DNA of 19,839 nucleotides from a virus (Duplodnaviria > Heunggongvirae > Uroviricota > Caudoviricetes): IMG/VR virus record IMGVR_UViG_2778261687_000006, positions 1 through 19,839 of that record, one strand, 5' to 3'. Each line of letters starts with the position of its first letter. Position 1 is the first letter of the stretch. A program made the translations under genes and the position numbers. Below, in pieces: positions 3,956 to 16,752 of this stretch. Below the pieces are notes generated by a model. That model was not told where the DNA came from. It saw nothing but the letters and a program-made list of their open reading frames with translations, and did not search any database.

Positions 3956-3974
3956 AACTTGTTACCTCGGTCTG

Positions 3975-3989
3975 TTACCGTTTAGGTAA
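3975..3989. promoter_or_regulatory. Dyad operator-like site TTACCGTTTAGGTAA
   Basis: Inverted half-sites TTACC / GGTAA with a 5-bp spacer, overlapping the start of the leftward transcript. Confidence 0.5.
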
Positions 3990-4017
3990 TAATTATGCGT
4001 ATGTGGTTTGATGTCAA
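3989..4017 (-). promoter_or_regulatory. Candidate leftward early promoter (pL-like): -35 TTGACA at 4012-4017 (minus strand), -10-like TAATTA near 3989-3994
   Basis: Perfect TTGACA on the minus strand, about 16 bp spacer, A/T hexamer; flanked by dyad sites at 3975-3989 and 4037-4051. Confidence 0.4.
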
Positions 4018-4036
4018 TAGATATGAGTTAAAAAAA

Positions 4037-4051
4037 TTACCCGTTAGGTAA
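4037..4051. promoter_or_regulatory. Dyad operator-like site TTACCCGTTAGGTAA
   Basis: Same TTACC-N5-GGTAA dyad, upstream of the pL-like -35. Confidence 0.5.
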
Positions 4052-4060
4052 TCGAATAGG

Positions 4061-4108: not shown

Positions 4109-4693
4109 TTATTGTTTGTTTTTTTCGTTCTGGTTGATGACAAATTCAATGTAACTTTCGATCTTTGCTTTCTCGGTTTCGGGTAACAATGCGTAGCGCG
4201 AGCGATCATAGTTGATGGTCGCAGGGTCGTGCGGGTGAATCAGTAATTCATAGCCGTGACGCCCGAATGCGGATGCAACATTCTCCAGGGTGGAAATGGA
4301 AACGCTGACCTCATTGTTTAACAGGCGGCTGATTGTCACCTGGGCGACGCCGGATGCGCGGTGTAGTTTTCCCTGCGTTGAAAGGTCGCGGCTTTCGCTC
4401 ATCCAGCGTTCCAGGTTGTGAGCCGCCAACTGACCAATGTCGCTTGGGCCGACAGGCTGAAAACCTTCCTGAGAAAGCGAGCGATCGATATCAAGCCAGT
4501 TACGGGGTTTATTGGCGGCAGCTTCAATTTTTCGTGCAACCTGGTCGCCGATAACCTTCTTGCCAAGAGCCCAGCGGTTTACCAGATTTGCCTGAGTTCC
4601 AAGTTTTTCAGCCATCCGCGTCTGAACACCATTGAATTCACGGTCGATCAAGTCGTTGAGATTTTGCCTGCGGACGTCCTGGATACTTTTCAT
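4109..4693 (-). CDS. Phage repressor-like protein with two XRE-type HTH domains, no peptidase S24 domain evident
   Basis: 194 aa; two HTH-like segments (TRMAEKLGTQANLVNRWALGKKVIGDQVARKIEAA and LHRASGVAQVTISRLLNNEVSVSISTLENVASAFG). Divergent from a Cro-like gene with operator repeats between. No Ala-Gly/Ser/Lys autocleavage signature seen. Confidence 0.65.
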   Translation of the reverse strand: MKSIQDVRRQNLNDLIDREFNGVQTRMAEKLGTQANLVNRWALGKKVIGDQVARKIEAAANKPRNWLDIDRSLSQEGFQPVGPSDIGQLAAHNLERWMSESRDLSTQGKLHRASGVAQVTISRLLNNEVSVSISTLENVASAFGRHGYELLIHPHDPATINYDRSRYALLPETEKAKIESYIEFVINQNEKNKQ

Positions 4694-4847: not shown

Positions 4848-5078
4848 ATGAGCGATAACGGACATTTCGATTTCAAAAAGCACTGGCTTGCACTTACTCC
4901 GGATGAGCGTGAAGCCTTCGCACAGGAAGCCGGAACGACGAGTCACTATATCCAGACTCACTTAACAGGTAAGCGCAAAATGCCAGGTAAGGTATTGATG
5001 GATGGGCTTTTTAAAGCCTGTAAATCAAGACAATGGCTGCGCTCAAAAGCAGAACTGGCATACTTCTTCTACTCATGA
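4848..5078 (+). CDS. Cro-like small HTH regulator
   Basis: 76 aa, divergent from the repressor-like gene; HTH-like segment TPDEREAFAQEAGTTSHYIQTHLTGKRKMP; followed directly by an intrinsic terminator. Confidence 0.55.
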   Translation: MSDNGHFDFKKHWLALTPDEREAFAQEAGTTSHYIQTHLTGKRKMPGKVLMDGLFKACKSRQWLRSKAELAYFFYS

Positions 5079-5100
5079 TATCCAGCCACAACCCTCTGTA

Positions 5101-5122
5101 GACCGCCATCCGGCGGTCTTTT
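5101..5122 (+). terminator. Rho-independent terminator after the Cro-like gene
   Basis: GACCGCC-atcc-GGCGGTC hairpin followed by TTTT. Confidence 0.6.
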
Positions 5123-5133
5123 CATATCTATTC

Positions 5134-5148
5134 GTACCTCAAAGGTAA
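5134..5148. promoter_or_regulatory. Dyad operator-like site GTACCTCAAAGGTAA
   Basis: TTACC-N5-GGTAA family member just after the Cro terminator; an ATATGGTT box follows at 5160-5167. Confidence 0.45.
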
Positions 5149-5161
5149 TAAAAAACCAAAT

Positions 5162-5422
5162 ATGGTTGATCTTTTTTTTGTGTCAGCACAAAATAACCGT
5201 AATCCCAATACCAATAACAGGGCTTACCATGGAAATCATTACACGTATTTCGCTGTGATGCTCGCCACCGGAGAGATGGAACTGCACGAAGTGAAAGGTT
5301 TCTGGACCGACGACGCCAGGGTGAAAACCAAAGTCGCCGCAGATCAGTATCCGTTCCGAATCATCGGGGTAACGGTTAAACCAAAGAAAGCAGGTGGTGG
5401 CTGGAACATCGAAGAGTTCTGA
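5162..5422 (+). CDS. Hypothetical small protein; start codon uncertain (ATG 5162, or internal ATGs giving about 48-55 aa)
   Basis: ORF track entry; the first ATG lies inside the conserved ATATGGTT box and lacks an RBS. Coding status doubtful. Confidence 0.3.
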   Translation: MVDLFFVSAQNNRNPNTNNRAYHGNHYTYFAVMLATGEMELHEVKGFWTDDARVKTKVAADQYPFRIIGVTVKPKKAGGGWNIEEF

Positions 5423-6197: not shown

Positions 6198-6613
6198 GCG
6201 AAATTAATTACCAGGCACTGCGTGAGGCGGCGGAACGTGCAATTCCAGCAATGGAACGCCTGTTAATGTTGCCAGCTGATGATGATTTGTTAAGTGAACA
6301 GGAACTTAAAGATTACGGTGTGGATATTGATGCGCTCAACGCCTTCAAATTTCTGGCCGGACCAGAAACCGTGCTGGCACTACTGGATGAACGGGAAAGG
6401 AACCAGCAATACATCAAATCCCGCGATCAGGAGAACGAGGATATTGCGCTAACGGTTGGGAGGCTGCTAATCGAAAACGGCCGGCTTGTTGCCGATACGC
6501 TACGCCACTTAGCTGATAACGAAATCGACTCTGATTATTTTGCTATCACCTCAACGAATGAGAACGGTACTGAAATTGATCATGAGATGGCTATTACTGA
6601 GCCGCCAGGATGA
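6194..6613 (+). CDS. Ead/Ea22-like family phage protein (recollection-based assignment)
   Basis: 139 aa; GTG start with strong RBS AAGGAGG 6 nt upstream; N-terminus MSEINYQALREAAERA and VLALLDERERNQQ resemble lambdoid Ea22-like proteins as I remember them. Confidence 0.55.
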   Translation: MSEINYQALREAAERAIPAMERLLMLPADDDLLSEQELKDYGVDIDALNAFKFLAGPETVLALLDERERNQQYIKSRDQENEDIALTVGRLLIENGRLVADTLRHLADNEIDSDYFAITSTNENGTEIDHEMAITEPPG

Positions 6614-6761
6614 TGCACGTGTGCGCTGGCGTATAAAATCGATCAGCAGAAAACGGTGCGGTAAGTGCGGCGAGAGAGTTCCTGTTAATTCATGCCCGTG
6701 TAATGGTGACTCGCAATGCTGGGTGAATAAAGGCTGGCATGAAACGAAATTAATAGTGTGA
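6540..6761 (+). CDS. Possible small Cys-rich (zinc-ribbon-like) protein; coding status uncertain
   Basis: ORF overlaps the 3' end of the previous gene in another frame; C-terminal CGKCGERVPVNSCPCNGDSQCW has CxxC ... CxC spacing. Its stop codon lies inside the GTGACATGTCAC palindrome. Confidence 0.25.
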   Translation: MLSPQRMRTVLKLIMRWLLLSRQDDARVRWRIKSISRKRCGKCGERVPVNSCPCNGDSQCWVNKGWHETKLIV

Positions 6762-6769
6762 CATGTCAC
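6758..6769. repeat. Perfect 12-bp palindrome GTGACATGTCAC, copy 1
   Basis: Read directly; overlaps the stop codon of the 6540..6761 ORF, upstream of the terS terminator. Confidence 0.9.
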
Positions 6770-6810
6770 GAGTAGATTATGCATGATGAATTTGATGGGT
6801 TTTGAATACT

Positions 6811-6837
6811 GCCGCCAACTATGGCGGCTTTATTTTG
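6811..6837 (+). terminator. Terminator-like hairpin upstream of terS
   Basis: GCCGCC-aactat-GGCGGC followed by TTTATTTTG; same stem sequence as the 4061-4086 terminator. Confidence 0.5.
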
Positions 6838-6843
6838 CATGGT

Positions 6844-6872
6844 ACTATTACCACAACGGTAACTATTACCAC
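6844..6872 (+). repeat. Tandem direct repeat ACTATTACCAC (6844-6854 and 6862-6872) immediately upstream of terS
   Basis: GGTACTATTACCACAACGGTAACTATTACCACGG read directly; includes an inverted GGTAA-cta-TTACC arrangement. Confidence 0.8.
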
Positions 6873-6879
6873 GGTGGTT

Positions 6880-7476
6880 ATGATGCCTGCTGAACCTAAA
6901 ACCTATAAACGCAAATCAACGCAATTTAAGCCACTAACAGCAATGCAGGAGGCTTATTGCCAGTCATACATCAAAACGCCTGAAAACCAGACTCAGGCAG
7001 CGATTAACGCAGGATTTTCCCCAAATACAGCGGCAGTTAAAGCCAGTGTCATGATGCGCGATGAACGCATTCAAAAACGGATTGCCGAGTTGATGGAGGA
7101 GCGCAACAAACGAATGCGCGTCAGTGCTGATTACGTTCTCATGCGCCTGGTGGAGATCGACCAGATGGACGTGATTGATATCCTCAACGACGATGGGAGC
7201 CTTAAGCCAATCCGCGAGTGGCCGAAAATCTGGCGCACTACGCTTAGTGGCTTTGATCTGTCGTCGACCATCATGAACATGAACGAGGATTCGATAGAGA
7301 CAATCCTCAAAAAAATTAAATGGCCTGACAAGGTGAAGAACCTTGAGCTGATTGGTAAGCATGTTGATGTCAACGCGTTCAAAGAACGTCTGGATGTTAA
7401 TGTGAATGTGACAATTGCTGATCGCATAGCAGCAGCCAGGAAGCGACTCAAAGAACGTCAGGATGGTAATCAGTGA
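6880..7476 (+). CDS. Terminase small subunit (TerS)
   Basis: About 198 aa from the ATGATG at 6880; positioned immediately upstream of and overlapping the large terminase gene; basic helical N-terminal region (TAVKASVMMRDERIQKRIAEL) consistent with a DNA-binding small terminase. The track's TTG-start extension translates a direct-repeat region. Confidence 0.65.
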   Translation: MMPAEPKTYKRKSTQFKPLTAMQEAYCQSYIKTPENQTQAAINAGFSPNTAAVKASVMMRDERIQKRIAELMEERNKRMRVSADYVLMRLVEIDQMDVIDILNDDGSLKPIREWPKIWRTTLSGFDLSSTIMNMNEDSIETILKKIKWPDKVKNLELIGKHVDVNAFKERLDVNVNVTIADRIAAARKRLKERQDGNQ

Positions 7477-8948
7477 CAGATACAGCGTTATCTCCTGAAG
7501 AGCAGTTGATCGAGGATATTGCAGGGTTCACTCACGATCCGCTTGGCTATGCCCTCTATGCGTTCCCGTGGGGGGAAGAGGGGACTGAACTGGCACATGC
7601 TACCGGTCCACGTCAGTGGCAGGCTGATGCGTTCCGAGAGATACGTGATCACCTGCAGAATCCAGAGACGCGCTATCAGCCGCTTATGCTGGCACGTGCT
7701 TCTGGTCACGGTATTGGTAAATCCGCATTCATCTCAATGCTGATCAACTGGGGCATGTCCACTTGCGAGGATTGTAAGGTCGTGGTGACCGCCAATACCG
7801 ACAACCAGCTACGAACGAAGACCTGGCCGGAAATTATCAAGTGGTCGAACCTTGCTATCACGAAAGACTGGTTCACCTGTACCGCTACCGCGATGTACAG
7901 CAATGATCCTGGGCACGACAAGCGGTGGCGAGCTGACGCAATCCCCTGGTCTGAGCACAATACTGAGGCGTTCGCCGGACTACACAACGAGCGCAAACGT
8001 ATCATCGTGGTATTCGATGAAGCGTCGAACATTGCGGATCTGGTGTGGGAAGTTGCCGAGGGTGCGCTTACGGACGAAGACACTGAGATTATCTGGGTGG
8101 CGTTCGGAAACCCGACGCGTAATACCGGACGTTTCCGAGAATGTTTCCGCAAATATAAACACCGCTGGAAAACTGCGCAGATTGACAGCCGGACGGTTGA
8201 AGGCACTAACAAACAGCAGTTGCAGAAATGGGTTGATGACTACGGGGAAGACAGCGACTTCGTTAAAATCCGTGTGCGTGGCATATTCCCTGATGCATCT
8301 GAATTGCAGTTTATCCCTACCGGTCTTACTGACGAGGCAATGAAACGGGTGGTAACCGCTGCGCAGGTGGCACATGCTCCGGTGATAATCGGCGTTGACC
8401 CGGCATACTCCGGCGTTGATGACGCGGTGATATACCTGCGGCAGGGGCTGCACAGTAAGGTGCTGTGGACTGGCAACAAGACCACCGACGATCTGATTAT
8501 GGCGAAGCGTATCGCTGACTTTGAAGACCAGTATCAGGCCGACGCGGTGTTCATCGACTTCGGTTACGGTACTGGCCTGAAGTCAATCGGTGACGACTGG
8601 GGGCGCACATGGCAACTTGTTCCGTTCGGTGGCGCGTCTACTGACCCGCAGATGCTCAACAAGCGTGGGGAGATGTTCAACTCATGTAAGACATGGCTGA
8701 GGCTGGGCGGGATGCTGGATGACCAGGAAACAGCGGACGACCTGTCGACGGCAGAGTACAAAGTTCGCGTGGACGGTAAAATCGTTATCGAACCGAAGGA
8801 AGATATCAAAGAGCGACTTGGGCGTTCGCCGGGGAAAGGCGATGCGCTATTGCTGACGTTTGCTTTCCCTGTGTCGAAGCGCCTGCGAATTCCCGGTCAG
8901 CAGAACCAGCAAGGCAAGGCCATCACAGATTACGACCCGTTTGCGTGA
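7473..8948 (+). CDS. Terminase large subunit (TerL), ATPase plus nuclease
   Basis: 491 aa; Walker A-like ASGHGIGKSAF, Walker B-like RIIVVFDEASN, C-terminal acidic nuclease-like motif VIIGVDPAYSG. GTG start overlaps the terS stop (GTGA). Confidence 0.85.
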   Translation: MTDTALSPEEQLIEDIAGFTHDPLGYALYAFPWGEEGTELAHATGPRQWQADAFREIRDHLQNPETRYQPLMLARASGHGIGKSAFISMLINWGMSTCEDCKVVVTANTDNQLRTKTWPEIIKWSNLAITKDWFTCTATAMYSNDPGHDKRWRADAIPWSEHNTEAFAGLHNERKRIIVVFDEASNIADLVWEVAEGALTDEDTEIIWVAFGNPTRNTGRFRECFRKYKHRWKTAQIDSRTVEGTNKQQLQKWVDDYGEDSDFVKIRVRGIFPDASELQFIPTGLTDEAMKRVVTAAQVAHAPVIIGVDPAYSGVDDAVIYLRQGLHSKVLWTGNKTTDDLIMAKRIADFEDQYQADAVFIDFGYGTGLKSIGDDWGRTWQLVPFGGASTDPQMLNKRGEMFNSCKTWLRLGGMLDDQETADDLSTAEYKVRVDGKIVIEPKEDIKERLGRSPGKGDALLLTFAFPVSKRLRIPGQQNQQGKAITDYDPFA

Positions 8949-10838: not shown

Positions 10839-10928
10839 TAATTTGCGCATTAAATGTCAACTGTCTACGACAAGTAAATCATATGTGGTTAAATTGGTGA
10901 TAATTTAATTGCGTACGGAGTCATTGAT

Positions 10929-11186
10929 ATGTGCATGGGTAGCTCACCATCAGTGCCTGCAACACCAGAAGTTCAGGCAGCACCACAGGAGCAGGATGCC
11001 GCCGTTGTTGATGCCCGCGACGAAGAAACTCGTCGCCGTCGCGCTGCTGCTGGTCGTAGTTCTACGCTGCTTGAGGCGGTGCAGAACCGCATGAACGATA
11101 TGTTCAATAAGTCGAATCTCTACCAGTCGCTGCCGGTGTTCAGCGGTATCTGCGTGTTAACTACTCCGTCGCAACTGGCCCACTAA
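10929..11186 (+). CDS. Hypothetical protein (85 aa); may be part of a frame-disrupted larger gene
   Basis: RBS GGAG 8 nt upstream of the ATG. A second frame stays open from 11111 to 11267 without any start codon and translates to protein-like sequence. Confidence 0.4.
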   Translation: MCMGSSPSVPATPEVQAAPQEQDAAVVDARDEETRRRRAAAGRSSTLLEAVQNRMNDMFNKSNLYQSLPVFSGICVLTTPSQLAH

Positions 11187-11279: not shown

Positions 11280-11630
11280 ATGTCAGGTGAGAAACCAAGA
11301 TACCGCGTTCTGCGCCTCTCTCATATCCATAACACTCTGTGGCCGGAGGGGGCAGAAATCGAATACGAAGGTGAGCCTGGTAGCGCACTGGAACCTGTTA
11401 ACGATGCAGCCAGACAGGCAAAAGCAAAGGTAGCAGGAAAGGTGTCAATGGCAGCAACCAGTACCAAAATCATCAACGATGTGTCAGATGATGGTGAGCT
11501 GGATAAGCTCCGTGAAGAGTACGAATTGCTCTTTAACGAGAAGCCACACCATAACGCCAAAGCCGAAACGCTCCGCGAGAAGATCGCAGATAACCGGTTC
11601 TGGTATTCAGCGTGGAACATGGAAAGGTGA
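11280..11630 (+). CDS. Hypothetical protein (116 aa)
   Basis: ATG at 11280 with RBS GGTGA 6 nt upstream; acidic, helical-looking sequence. The +1 frame stays open across its last 150 nt. Confidence 0.5.
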   Translation: MSGEKPRYRVLRLSHIHNTLWPEGAEIEYEGEPGSALEPVNDAARQAKAKVAGKVSMAATSTKIINDVSDDGELDKLREEYELLFNEKPHHNAKAETLREKIADNRFWYSAWNMER

Positions 11631-11679
11631 ATTAACGAGAAGTGTTTTCCTGTTTAAATCGTTCCCTATCTCGGTGGTT

Positions 11680-12240
11680 ATGCGTCACTGGTCACGCGCT
11701 ATGGGTATGCCGTCTGCTGGTGGGCGTGCGGCATATATTGCGACGTTTATTGCCAGTACGACCATTCTTGGAGCTTTGTCGCAGCAACTTAACGACCTTG
11801 CGTCTGGTCGTAATCCTCGCGAGATGACAGGAGAAGATGCCGCAAAATTCTGGCTTGGTGCTCTATTGAAAGGTGGTGGTCTTGGCCTTTACGGTGACTT
11901 TTTATTGTCAGATCACACTAGGTACGGAAGCGGCGCGCTGGCGTCGATGCTTGGCCCGGTGGCTGGTCTGGTTGATGACGTAGTGAAGATTGCTCAGGGC
12001 ATACCGTTAAATGCTGTGGAAGGGAAGAGTGAGCAGACTGGTGGTGATCTGGTGAAGCTGGGGAAAGGTTTGATGCCAGGTGCGAATCTCTGGTACTTGA
12101 AGGCGGCTCTCGATCACATGATCTTTAACCAGATGCAGGAGTATTTTTCACCAGGCTATTTGCGTAAAATGGAGCAACGTTCGAAGAAAGAGTTTAACCA
12201 GACATACTGGTGGCGACCTCAGGATGTCACTCCGCAATAA
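11680..12240 (+). CDS. Hypothetical protein with Gly-rich hydrophobic segments; start poorly defined (ATG 11680 or GTG 11674), possible frameshift fusion with the upstream ORF
   Basis: Long open frame 11479..12240, protein-like only after about 11640; no well-spaced RBS at the candidate starts. Confidence 0.45.
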   Translation: MRHWSRAMGMPSAGGRAAYIATFIASTTILGALSQQLNDLASGRNPREMTGEDAAKFWLGALLKGGGLGLYGDFLLSDHTRYGSGALASMLGPVAGLVDDVVKIAQGIPLNAVEGKSEQTGGDLVKLGKGLMPGANLWYLKAALDHMIFNQMQEYFSPGYLRKMEQRSKKEFNQTYWWRPQDVTPQ

Positions 12241-12782: not shown

Positions 12783-12886
12783 TATCTGTTCGTATTTATG
12801 GTTTATCTATCCATATGTGGTTTTTCAGGTAATAGAATAACCGGATATGCGGCGCAACGGGTGCTGCGACTATCTGGAGATTTAAC

Positions 12887-16656: not shown

Positions 16657-16752
16657 TTTAGTTAAGAGTTATCAGAGGTAAACTTATCCATATATGGTTT
16701 ATTGTGTATGATGGACTTACCAACTAAGGGGGTTCATTATGCACAGTAAACG

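Follow-up and report, generated by a model that had tools for sequence, protein, structure and literature searches.

The closest described counterpart of the locus analyzed here is found in Salmonella phage epsilon15, whose RefSeq record (NC_004775.2) carries seven ‘protein_bind: repressor’ features with the consensus ATTACC-N5-GGTAAT. Some of these sites belong to the immunity region, others precede gp3 and the tailspike gene, and one, annotated at 12–27, stands directly 5' of terS, the gene for the small terminase subunit, just after a terminator. In lambda, cI operators control the early promoters, and Q antitermination turns on the late genes. Conserved inverted repeats serve as genome-wide repressor sites in Streptomyces phage phiC31. 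The stoperators of mycobacteriophages L5 and Bxb1 give one immunity repressor many sites throughout the genome, late and structural genes included, and act on elongating polymerase in one orientation. Headful phages that have been studied well have their pac sites inside terS or close to it, and those of SPP1, P22 and Sf6 are unique in the genome and recognized by TerS.

Rep, the repressor of the Rep/Ant switch in phage SPC32H, binds palindromic DNA as a tetramer in which DNA-binding domains are paired from different dimers, and in this family an antirepressor reportedly inactivates it, both according to one paper (PMC9638917, citing Kim et al. 2016 for the binding mode). In the ZX5 paper, which maps no operators, repressor overexpression stops lysis-gene transcription, and a value of 42% is given between the epsilon15 repressor and the repressor common to ZX5, phiV10 and two other phages.

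Here, we analyze a viral DNA stretch of 19,839 nucleotides (the window), in which an earlier note, made from the letters alone, had described a tandem repeat between a terminator-like hairpin and terS and had offered a packaging recognition site, or translational or transcriptional control of terminase, as its possible role. We find that the ‘tandem repeat’ is most likely two neighboring Rep operators, O1 and O2, laid over a small putative promoter (Table 1).

Results

The sequence of the window marks it as the remnant of a phiV10/epsilon15-like (Uetakevirus) prophage. From approximately 6594 on, it is 97–98% identical to phiV10, TL-2011b, PAS61 and other Uetakevirus-type temperate podophages. 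This phiV10-like homology starts inside a gp49-like remnant gene, the start of which is uncertain (ATG 6558 or 6582). Homology of its product is limited to the C-terminal 54 residues, which are 94% identical to residues 59–112 of TL-2011b gp20; the protein matches PHROG 536 and no Pfam or NCBIfam family. The prophage is degraded: after a gp3-like start come a fragment of a gp17-like virion protein and the tailspike gene, in that order, and the window has neither the portal-to-injection-protein block nor replication genes. A 161-bp query covering window positions 6740–6900 is present in 502 of 5,426 complete E. coli genomes.

Table 1 Features of the window around terS and the operator sites found elsewhere in it.
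Feature	Position	Strand	Basis or remark
Leftward early promoter PL, two operators 62 bp apart	3974–4052	−	operators 3974–3990 and 4036–4052
Operator pair, ≤1 mismatch	3974 and 4036		at PL, 3' of rep
Rep, prophage repressor and presumed O1/O2-binding protein	4109–4693	−	SPC32H repressor homologue
Operator site, ≤1 mismatch	4748		between rep and the cro-like gene
Operator sites, 2 mismatches	5133, 9720, 16641		16641 upstream of the lysis genes
epsilon15 gp49-like small Cys-rich ‘transcriptional regulator’, remnant	6582–6761	+	last gene 5' of the terminator
Intrinsic (rho-independent) terminator, end of the rightward early operon	6811–6837	+	terminator scan
Predicted extended −10 promoter TGgTACTAT	6840–6848	+	TG 6840–6841, hexamer TACTAT 6843–6848
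Operator O1	6847–6863		ATTACCACAACGGTAAC; 1 mismatch to ATTACC-N5-GGTAAT (pattern search)
Operator-like O2	6865–6881		ATTACCACGGTGGTTAT; 1 mismatch to ATTACC-N5-GGTAAT (pattern search)
Shine–Dalgarno sequence GGTGG of terS	6873–6877	+	5 nt 5' of ATG 6883; kept in most lineages
terS, small terminase subunit, 197 aa, Terminase_2/PF03592	6883–7476	+	Pfam 1e-29; PHROG 51 8e-58
terL	7473–8948		follows terS; PHROG 2 match
Operator site, ≤1 mismatch	10823		upstream of the gp3-like gene
Operator site, ≤1 mismatch	12767		upstream of the tailspike gene

Read from 6811, the sequence runs GCCGCCA-ACTA-TGGCGGC TTTATTTTG CA TGgTACTAT TACC ACAAC GGTAAC T ATTACC ACGGT GGTTAT G ATG. The hairpin at its head has a 7-bp stem with six GC pairs (6811–6817 with 6822–6828), the 4-nt loop ACTA and a T-run at 6829–6836, and thereby brings together a GC-rich stem-loop, a T-run and the end of a transcription unit. 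With the terminator scan agreeing and a rho-independent terminator annotated at the equivalent place in the epsilon15 record, what had been called terminator-like is a canonical intrinsic terminator. It is kept in most relatives and is missing where the upstream gene differs, and there the promoter and operator sequences are still present. At the other end of the spacer, the terS start needs to be moved from 6880, as previously proposed, to the conserved ATG at 6883: changes at 6882 in some relatives kill the first ATG, other terS lineages have the second ATG only, and 6883 matches the annotations of TL-2011b and of the epsilon15 RefSeq record. The long TTG-start ORF (6802) that reads through the repeat was rightly suspected of being an annotation artefact, because it contains in-frame stops in 26 of the 59 upstream haplotypes of related loci. 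The phiV10, PAT1 and SPN1S records run terS through the spacer from a TTG start.

The tandem repeat string GGTACTATTACCACAACGGTAACTATTACCACGG stands 5' of terS just as the earlier note gave it, and a repeat finder places ACTATTACCAC exactly twice, at 6844–6854 and 6862–6872, 18 bp from start to start. By itself the repeat is only mildly surprising, given that one exact 11-mer direct repeat with a spacing of ≤30 nt is seen in the 19.8-kb window against 0.15 per shuffle. The conserved unit is not this 11-mer direct repeat; it is the 17-bp palindrome ATTACC-N5-GGTAAT. The duplication is a by-product of the O1/O2 layout, in which every left half-site (ATTACC), taken together with some bases at its flanks, gives one copy of ACTATTACCAC. 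O1 shares 2 bp with the end of the −10 hexamer and spans the predicted transcription start, and O2, 18 bp from O1, spans the Shine–Dalgarno sequence and extends to the start codon. The inverted arrangement GGTAA-cta-TTACC, previously read as operator half-sites, is indeed made of them, but the pairing it describes is the place where O1, by its right half, meets the left half of O2; a single operator reads ATTACC-N5-GGTAA. O1 aligns with epsilon15 positions 11–27, over the site annotated there. Two differences from epsilon15 are seen: the phiV10-type O1 ends in C, not T, and a one-mismatch O2 follows 18 bp downstream and creates the exact 11-mer duplication, whereas epsilon15 annotates one site at this place.

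The operator motif is strongly over-represented in the window. At ≤1 mismatch to ATTACC-N5-GGTAAT there are 7 sites against 0.05 expected, at ≤2 mismatches 11 against 0.8, and at ≤3 mismatches 24 against 7.5, with a shuffle maximum of 15. The same layout is found in phiV10, epsilon15 and SPN1S (7–10 sites per genome, the window included), and the order of terminator followed by operator occurs again at 5100–5149. The element that holds these sites also codes for a cognate repressor of the Rep family, and the motif flanks the gene for it (3974, 4036, 4748 and 4796). This protein has an HTH_3 domain, matches the SPC32H repressor (PDB 5D50) with E = 4e-42 over residues 1–190, is roughly half identical to SPC32H Rep across the aligned residues, and is near-identical to the repressor common to ZX5, phiV10 and two other phages. 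At PL, the promoter scan calls TTGACA-17-AATTAT on the minus strand, ending at 3989, with a 2-bp overlap with the operator at 3974–3990. Operator pairs spaced 17 bp apart (abutting) occur in the rep/cro region of epsilon15 and SPN1S, and 62-bp pairs occur at other promoters. The Cro-like protein encoded at 4848–5078 may use the same operators as Rep.

To describe the spacer across relatives, terS loci were collected from GenBank phages, GTDB genomes and IMG/VR, giving 267 loci with 59 distinct upstream sequences. The first scan of viral contigs returned only 100% identical TerS, and the diversity comes from three more scans with divergent TerS queries. All 59 upstream haplotypes match TG-n-TAnnAT-TACC-N5-RGTAAY, including lineages that have no terminator, a different upstream gene or unrelated sequence farther upstream. 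The operator within the repeat shows no variation across Escherichia, Salmonella, Klebsiella, Citrobacter, Enterobacter, Erwinia, Scandinavium and Pseudocitrobacter. O2 is not universal. In the phiV10 type it reads ATTACC-N5-GGTTAT and in the epsilon15 type ATTACT-N5-GGTAAC (ATTACTTCGGTGGTAAC in epsilon15), both 18 bp from O1; the Erwinia/environmental type has ATTACT-N5-GGTAAT at 20 bp, with an independent sequence in the Erwinia dacicola prophage (ATTACTAATGTGGTAAT). The Klebsiella type and one other lineage have a degenerate version. When relatives with a different repressor type were looked for, every sampled lineage was found to share one operator consensus. In two loci (L062 and L045) terS operators are present and the 10 kb upstream contain no Rep homologue; since their sequences hardly differ, these loci are not informative on the pairing of Rep and operator.

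Among 79 loci with identical TerS (20 haplotypes), the variable positions are 6842 (the n of TGn), 6845 (the third −10 position), 6854, 6855 and 6857 (the O1 spacer), 6864 (between the operators), 6872 (the O2 spacer, with three alternative bases) and 6882, and the right half of O2 varies in two singletons. The distance between the Shine–Dalgarno sequence and ATG places a further constraint on sequence that this right half overlaps. In these loci, none of the 18 positions in the left and right halves of O1 and the left half of O2 is variable, against 10 of the 27 others (Fisher p = 0.003); for all four half-sites the count is 2/24 against 8/21 (p = 0.03). Only 58 of the 79 loci retain the exact 11-mer duplication, whereas all 79 retain the ATTACC cores; selection therefore acts on the half-sites of the palindrome and not on the direct repeat.

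The promoter call at terS rests on the conserved TGn and TAnnAT. The standard −35/−10 promoter scan calls no promoter there, because there is no −35 element. The candidate has TG one base 5' of the hexamer and the T1, A2 and T6 of an extended −10 element, and TG-n-TAnnAT is kept in every one of the distinct upstream haplotypes. Differences in the hexamer are confined to its two middle positions (TACTAT, TAGTAT, TATTAT, TACCAT and TACAAT), and the base after TG is free. This pattern is as expected of an extended −10 promoter rather than of an extension of the palindromic operator, and would place the terS transcription start near 6855. The other operators in the window do not have TG-n-TAnnAT on their left flank. 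The last two bases of the −10 hexamer are the first two of O1, which is the same overlap as at PL. PL is the sole reference for this geometry, because the phiV10 promoter 5' of the DUF1064 gene was likewise missed by the scan; its hexamer, TTTAAT, lacks A2.

Discussion

We conclude that positions 6838–6882 are probably the control region of the terS–terL packaging operon, in the form of a Rep-repressed promoter behind the early-operon terminator. Of the roles first proposed for the repeat, transcriptional control of terminase is the best reading, on the grounds of the operator excess, the conservation of the half-sites, the presence of a cognate Rep and the orthology with the epsilon15 site. 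The terminator would end the rightward early transcript and be followed directly by a −35-independent extended −10 promoter, with O1 overlaying the end of the −10 element and the predicted start, and O2 the ribosome-binding site. In the lysogen, Rep on O1 and O2 would keep RNA polymerase off the terminase promoter, and once Rep is inactivated this promoter would fire. Binding of Rep at O1 and O2, the activity of the promoter and the position of its start are predictions from sequence features. Joint occupancy of O1 and O2 by one Rep tetramer is plausible, because the SPC32H Rep tetramer pairs domains from different dimers and abutting operator pairs occur.

The same sites could also be read as roadblocks, at which bound Rep stops polymerases that have read through the terminator, with no occlusion of a promoter. 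We consider this unlikely, although the window shares with the L5 and Bxb1 systems an operator motif found genome-wide at the head of most transcription units, late ones included, and the terS site lies directly 3' of a terminator, where read-through arrives. Stoperators are an established mechanism for L5-type repressors, but they are described as asymmetric and bound by a monomer (PMC9283540), whereas the window sites are palindromic and intergenic and overlap a −10 element at both terS and PL. Moreover, TG-n-TAnnAT at O1 is invariant and is kept without an upstream terminator or co-oriented early genes, which fits a promoter better; roadblock and promoter occlusion are not mutually exclusive. 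Control at the level of RNA, in which a leader hairpin with GGUAA-CUA-UUACC and ACCAC/GUGGU pairing would sequester the Shine–Dalgarno sequence or start codon and so regulate terS translation, appears highly improbable. A fold of 6800–6890 does contain a second long hairpin (6837–6890) that includes the Shine–Dalgarno sequence and AUG (MFE −35.7 kcal/mol, z = −6.1), and the pairing of the right half of O1 with the left half of O2 is kept in some relatives, for example as AGUAAU/AUUACU in the Erwinia dacicola prophage. Two adjacent palindromes necessarily fold in this manner, however, and much of the z-score is likely to come from the terminator: leaders that begin at the predicted start fold no better than shuffles (z of −1.4 to +0.5), the structures differ between lineages, and the commonest polymorphism in the predicted stem (6842, 10 loci) breaks a pair with no compensation. 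A search of Rfam gave sub-threshold matches only, none above chance.

A TerS-binding pac site for headful packaging, with the repeats acting like the repeated boxes around SPP1 gene 1, was another of the suggested roles, and we hold it to be very unlikely. As in SPP1, P22 and Sf6, the site is at or beside terS, the product of which belongs to Terminase_2 as SPP1/SF6 G1P does, and notes in the epsilon15 RefSeq record relate TerS to that of Bacillus phage SF6 and TerL to gp2 of Shigella phage Sf6. A pac site is to be expected somewhere in these genomes, given that the relative Tyrion is reported to be terminally redundant and circularly permuted (PMC5754475), in the only announcement that a literature search for headful, pac or repressor-binding statements on this phage group returned. 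A pac site is unique, but this motif occurs at 7–10 places per genome, before most transcription units and in the immunity region too, where it matches the immunity operators. The direct-repeat unit itself is not conserved, and its second copy decays in some lineages even though TerS remains approximately 78–88% identical. GenBank records start at several points in the spacer (window positions 6762, 6782, 6801, 6808 and 6837), which suggests conventional origins rather than mapped ends; binding of TerS to DNA nearby is conceivable. A cos site with unique cohesive ends, like that of lambda with its cosB repeats beside the small terminase gene, was also considered and was rejected because Tyrion is circularly permuted, which is evidence from a relative and not from this element. 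That the repeat arose by chance or by a recent local duplication and has no function is hardly credible. The shuffle expectation makes such a repeat only modestly unlikely, and the exact duplication is restricted to the phiV10-type lineage, but the embedded operator is invariant across genera and the pattern of polymorphism is that of selection on the half-sites.

If positions 6838–6882 are a Rep-repressed promoter, a wider arrangement comes into view, which we put forward tentatively and think rather doubtful: a modular layout in which a Rep operator heads most transcription units and packaging is gated by the lysogeny repressor, not by a late activator or antiterminator. The units may be early left, early right, packaging, head, tailspike and lysis, some of them with the operator directly behind a terminator, and at the packaging unit one Rep tetramer would perhaps bridge O1 and O2, from the −10 element to the ribosome-binding site. 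The lambda PL and PR promoters resemble the window in that a palindromic operator lies over the −10 hexamer and adjacent operators could allow cooperative binding. Unlike in lambda, the window motif stands directly before the packaging, head, tailspike and lysis units. The head, tailspike and lysis units have, in addition, a second conserved palindrome, AACCATATATGGTT, which is absent at terS; if the modular layout is true, this palindrome would mark a separate regulatory class. That the same DNA doubles as the pac recognition region of TerS is a less likely extension of this layout, and a most improbable one.

The window agrees with epsilon15 and SPC32H in its Uetakevirus-like group, the 17-bp palindrome, the position upstream of terS after the same terminator and a homologous repressor, as well as in the placing of further sites, within the immunity region and before gp3 and the tailspike gene. 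The feature is an ordinary one, most likely the phiV10-type form of the repressor operator that the epsilon15 record annotates. These results leave the current understanding of phage regulation unchanged, and their value is mostly for annotation: the spacer is to be read as a promoter and operator region and not as coding sequence, with no sign of a packaging site. If it is true that Rep gates the terminase promoter, silencing of the packaging genes would depend on the immunity repressor alone, and this would bear on the behavior of defective remnants that keep terS–terL, the tailspike gene and the lysis genes after the head genes have been lost.

Public records start terS about 27 codons too far upstream, at a position that is not conserved, so that the annotated gene runs across the operators and into the terminator. 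This extended start is a TTG in the phiV10-type sequence (window position 6802), and the extended stretch is interrupted by in-frame stops in relatives. The arrangement at terS, an intrinsic terminator with a Rep-type operator a few bases on, is also seen after the cro-like gene (5100-5149).

Upstream of terS, the gp49-like gene ends in a stop codon that is overlapped by GTGACATGTCAC, a perfect palindrome of 12 bp (6757-6768). This palindrome is kept in relatives from E. coli, Salmonella, Enterobacter, Citrobacter and Scandinavium, even in those with a different spacer after it. The gp49-like Cys-rich regulator (region 6540-6761) is reduced to its C-terminal 54 residues, which share 94% identity with residues 59-112 of TL-2011b gp20. 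Window DNA upstream of about 6594 resembles P22-like ead/Ea22 regions, and this switch in DNA similarity places a mosaic junction inside the gp49-like gene, near 6594.

The prophage in the window is a deletion remnant. The genes for portal, protease, capsid, tail-tube and injection proteins are missing, the gp3-like start (from about 10929) bears a head-tail-adaptor fragment (10929-11186), and the next feature is the C-terminal part only of a gp17-like virion protein (11479-12240). By comparison with phiV10, the replication genes behind the gp42-like start (5162 onward) also appear to have been deleted. In two IMG/VR contigs (L062 and L045) operators are present at terS and gp3, and within approximately 10 kb upstream of terS neither a Rep homologue nor further operator motifs were found. 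Either these loci are hybrids whose early region is of another type, or their immunity region lies further off; both are possibilities.

Besides the Rep operator, another motif is conserved, the near-palindrome ATCCATATGTGGTTT / AACCATATATGGTT. It gave seven matches at up to three mismatches, against 0.75 expected, and is also carried by phiV10, epsilon15 and SPN1S. For five of the seven matches a Rep operator lies 4-40 nt upstream, the units concerned being gp3, tailspike, lysis and early; terS lacks the motif. A further regulator could bind here, or the motif could be an element close to promoters that sets apart a different regulatory class.

Coordinates of predicted regulatory features and extended terS annotations
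Feature	Sequence	Position	Strand
ATCCATATGTGGTTT / AACCATATATGGTT motif	window	3995-4009	
ATCCATATGTGGTTT / AACCATATATGGTT motif	window	5153-5167	minus
ATCCATATGTGGTTT / AACCATATATGGTT motif	window	10877-10891	
ATCCATATGTGGTTT / AACCATATATGGTT motif	window	12809-12823	
ATCCATATGTGGTTT / AACCATATATGGTT motif	window	16686-16700	
62-bp operator pair	window	3974-3990 / 4036-4052	
62-bp operator pair	phiV10	35069 / 35131	
62-bp operator pair	epsilon15	32554 / 32616	
62-bp operator pair	epsilon15	35906 / 35968	
Intrinsic terminator after cro-like gene	window	5100-5119	
Operator-like site behind that terminator	window	5133-5149	
Extended terS annotation	phiV10 (L010)	41-715	
Extended terS annotation	PAT1 (L002)	1498-2169	
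Extended terS annotation	SPN1S (L009)	1-669	

Operator pairs recur at a spacing of exactly 62 bp, centre to centre, with a promoter flanked by the pair. This recurring exact spacing around a promoter suggests that a tetrameric repressor loops or bridges the DNA.
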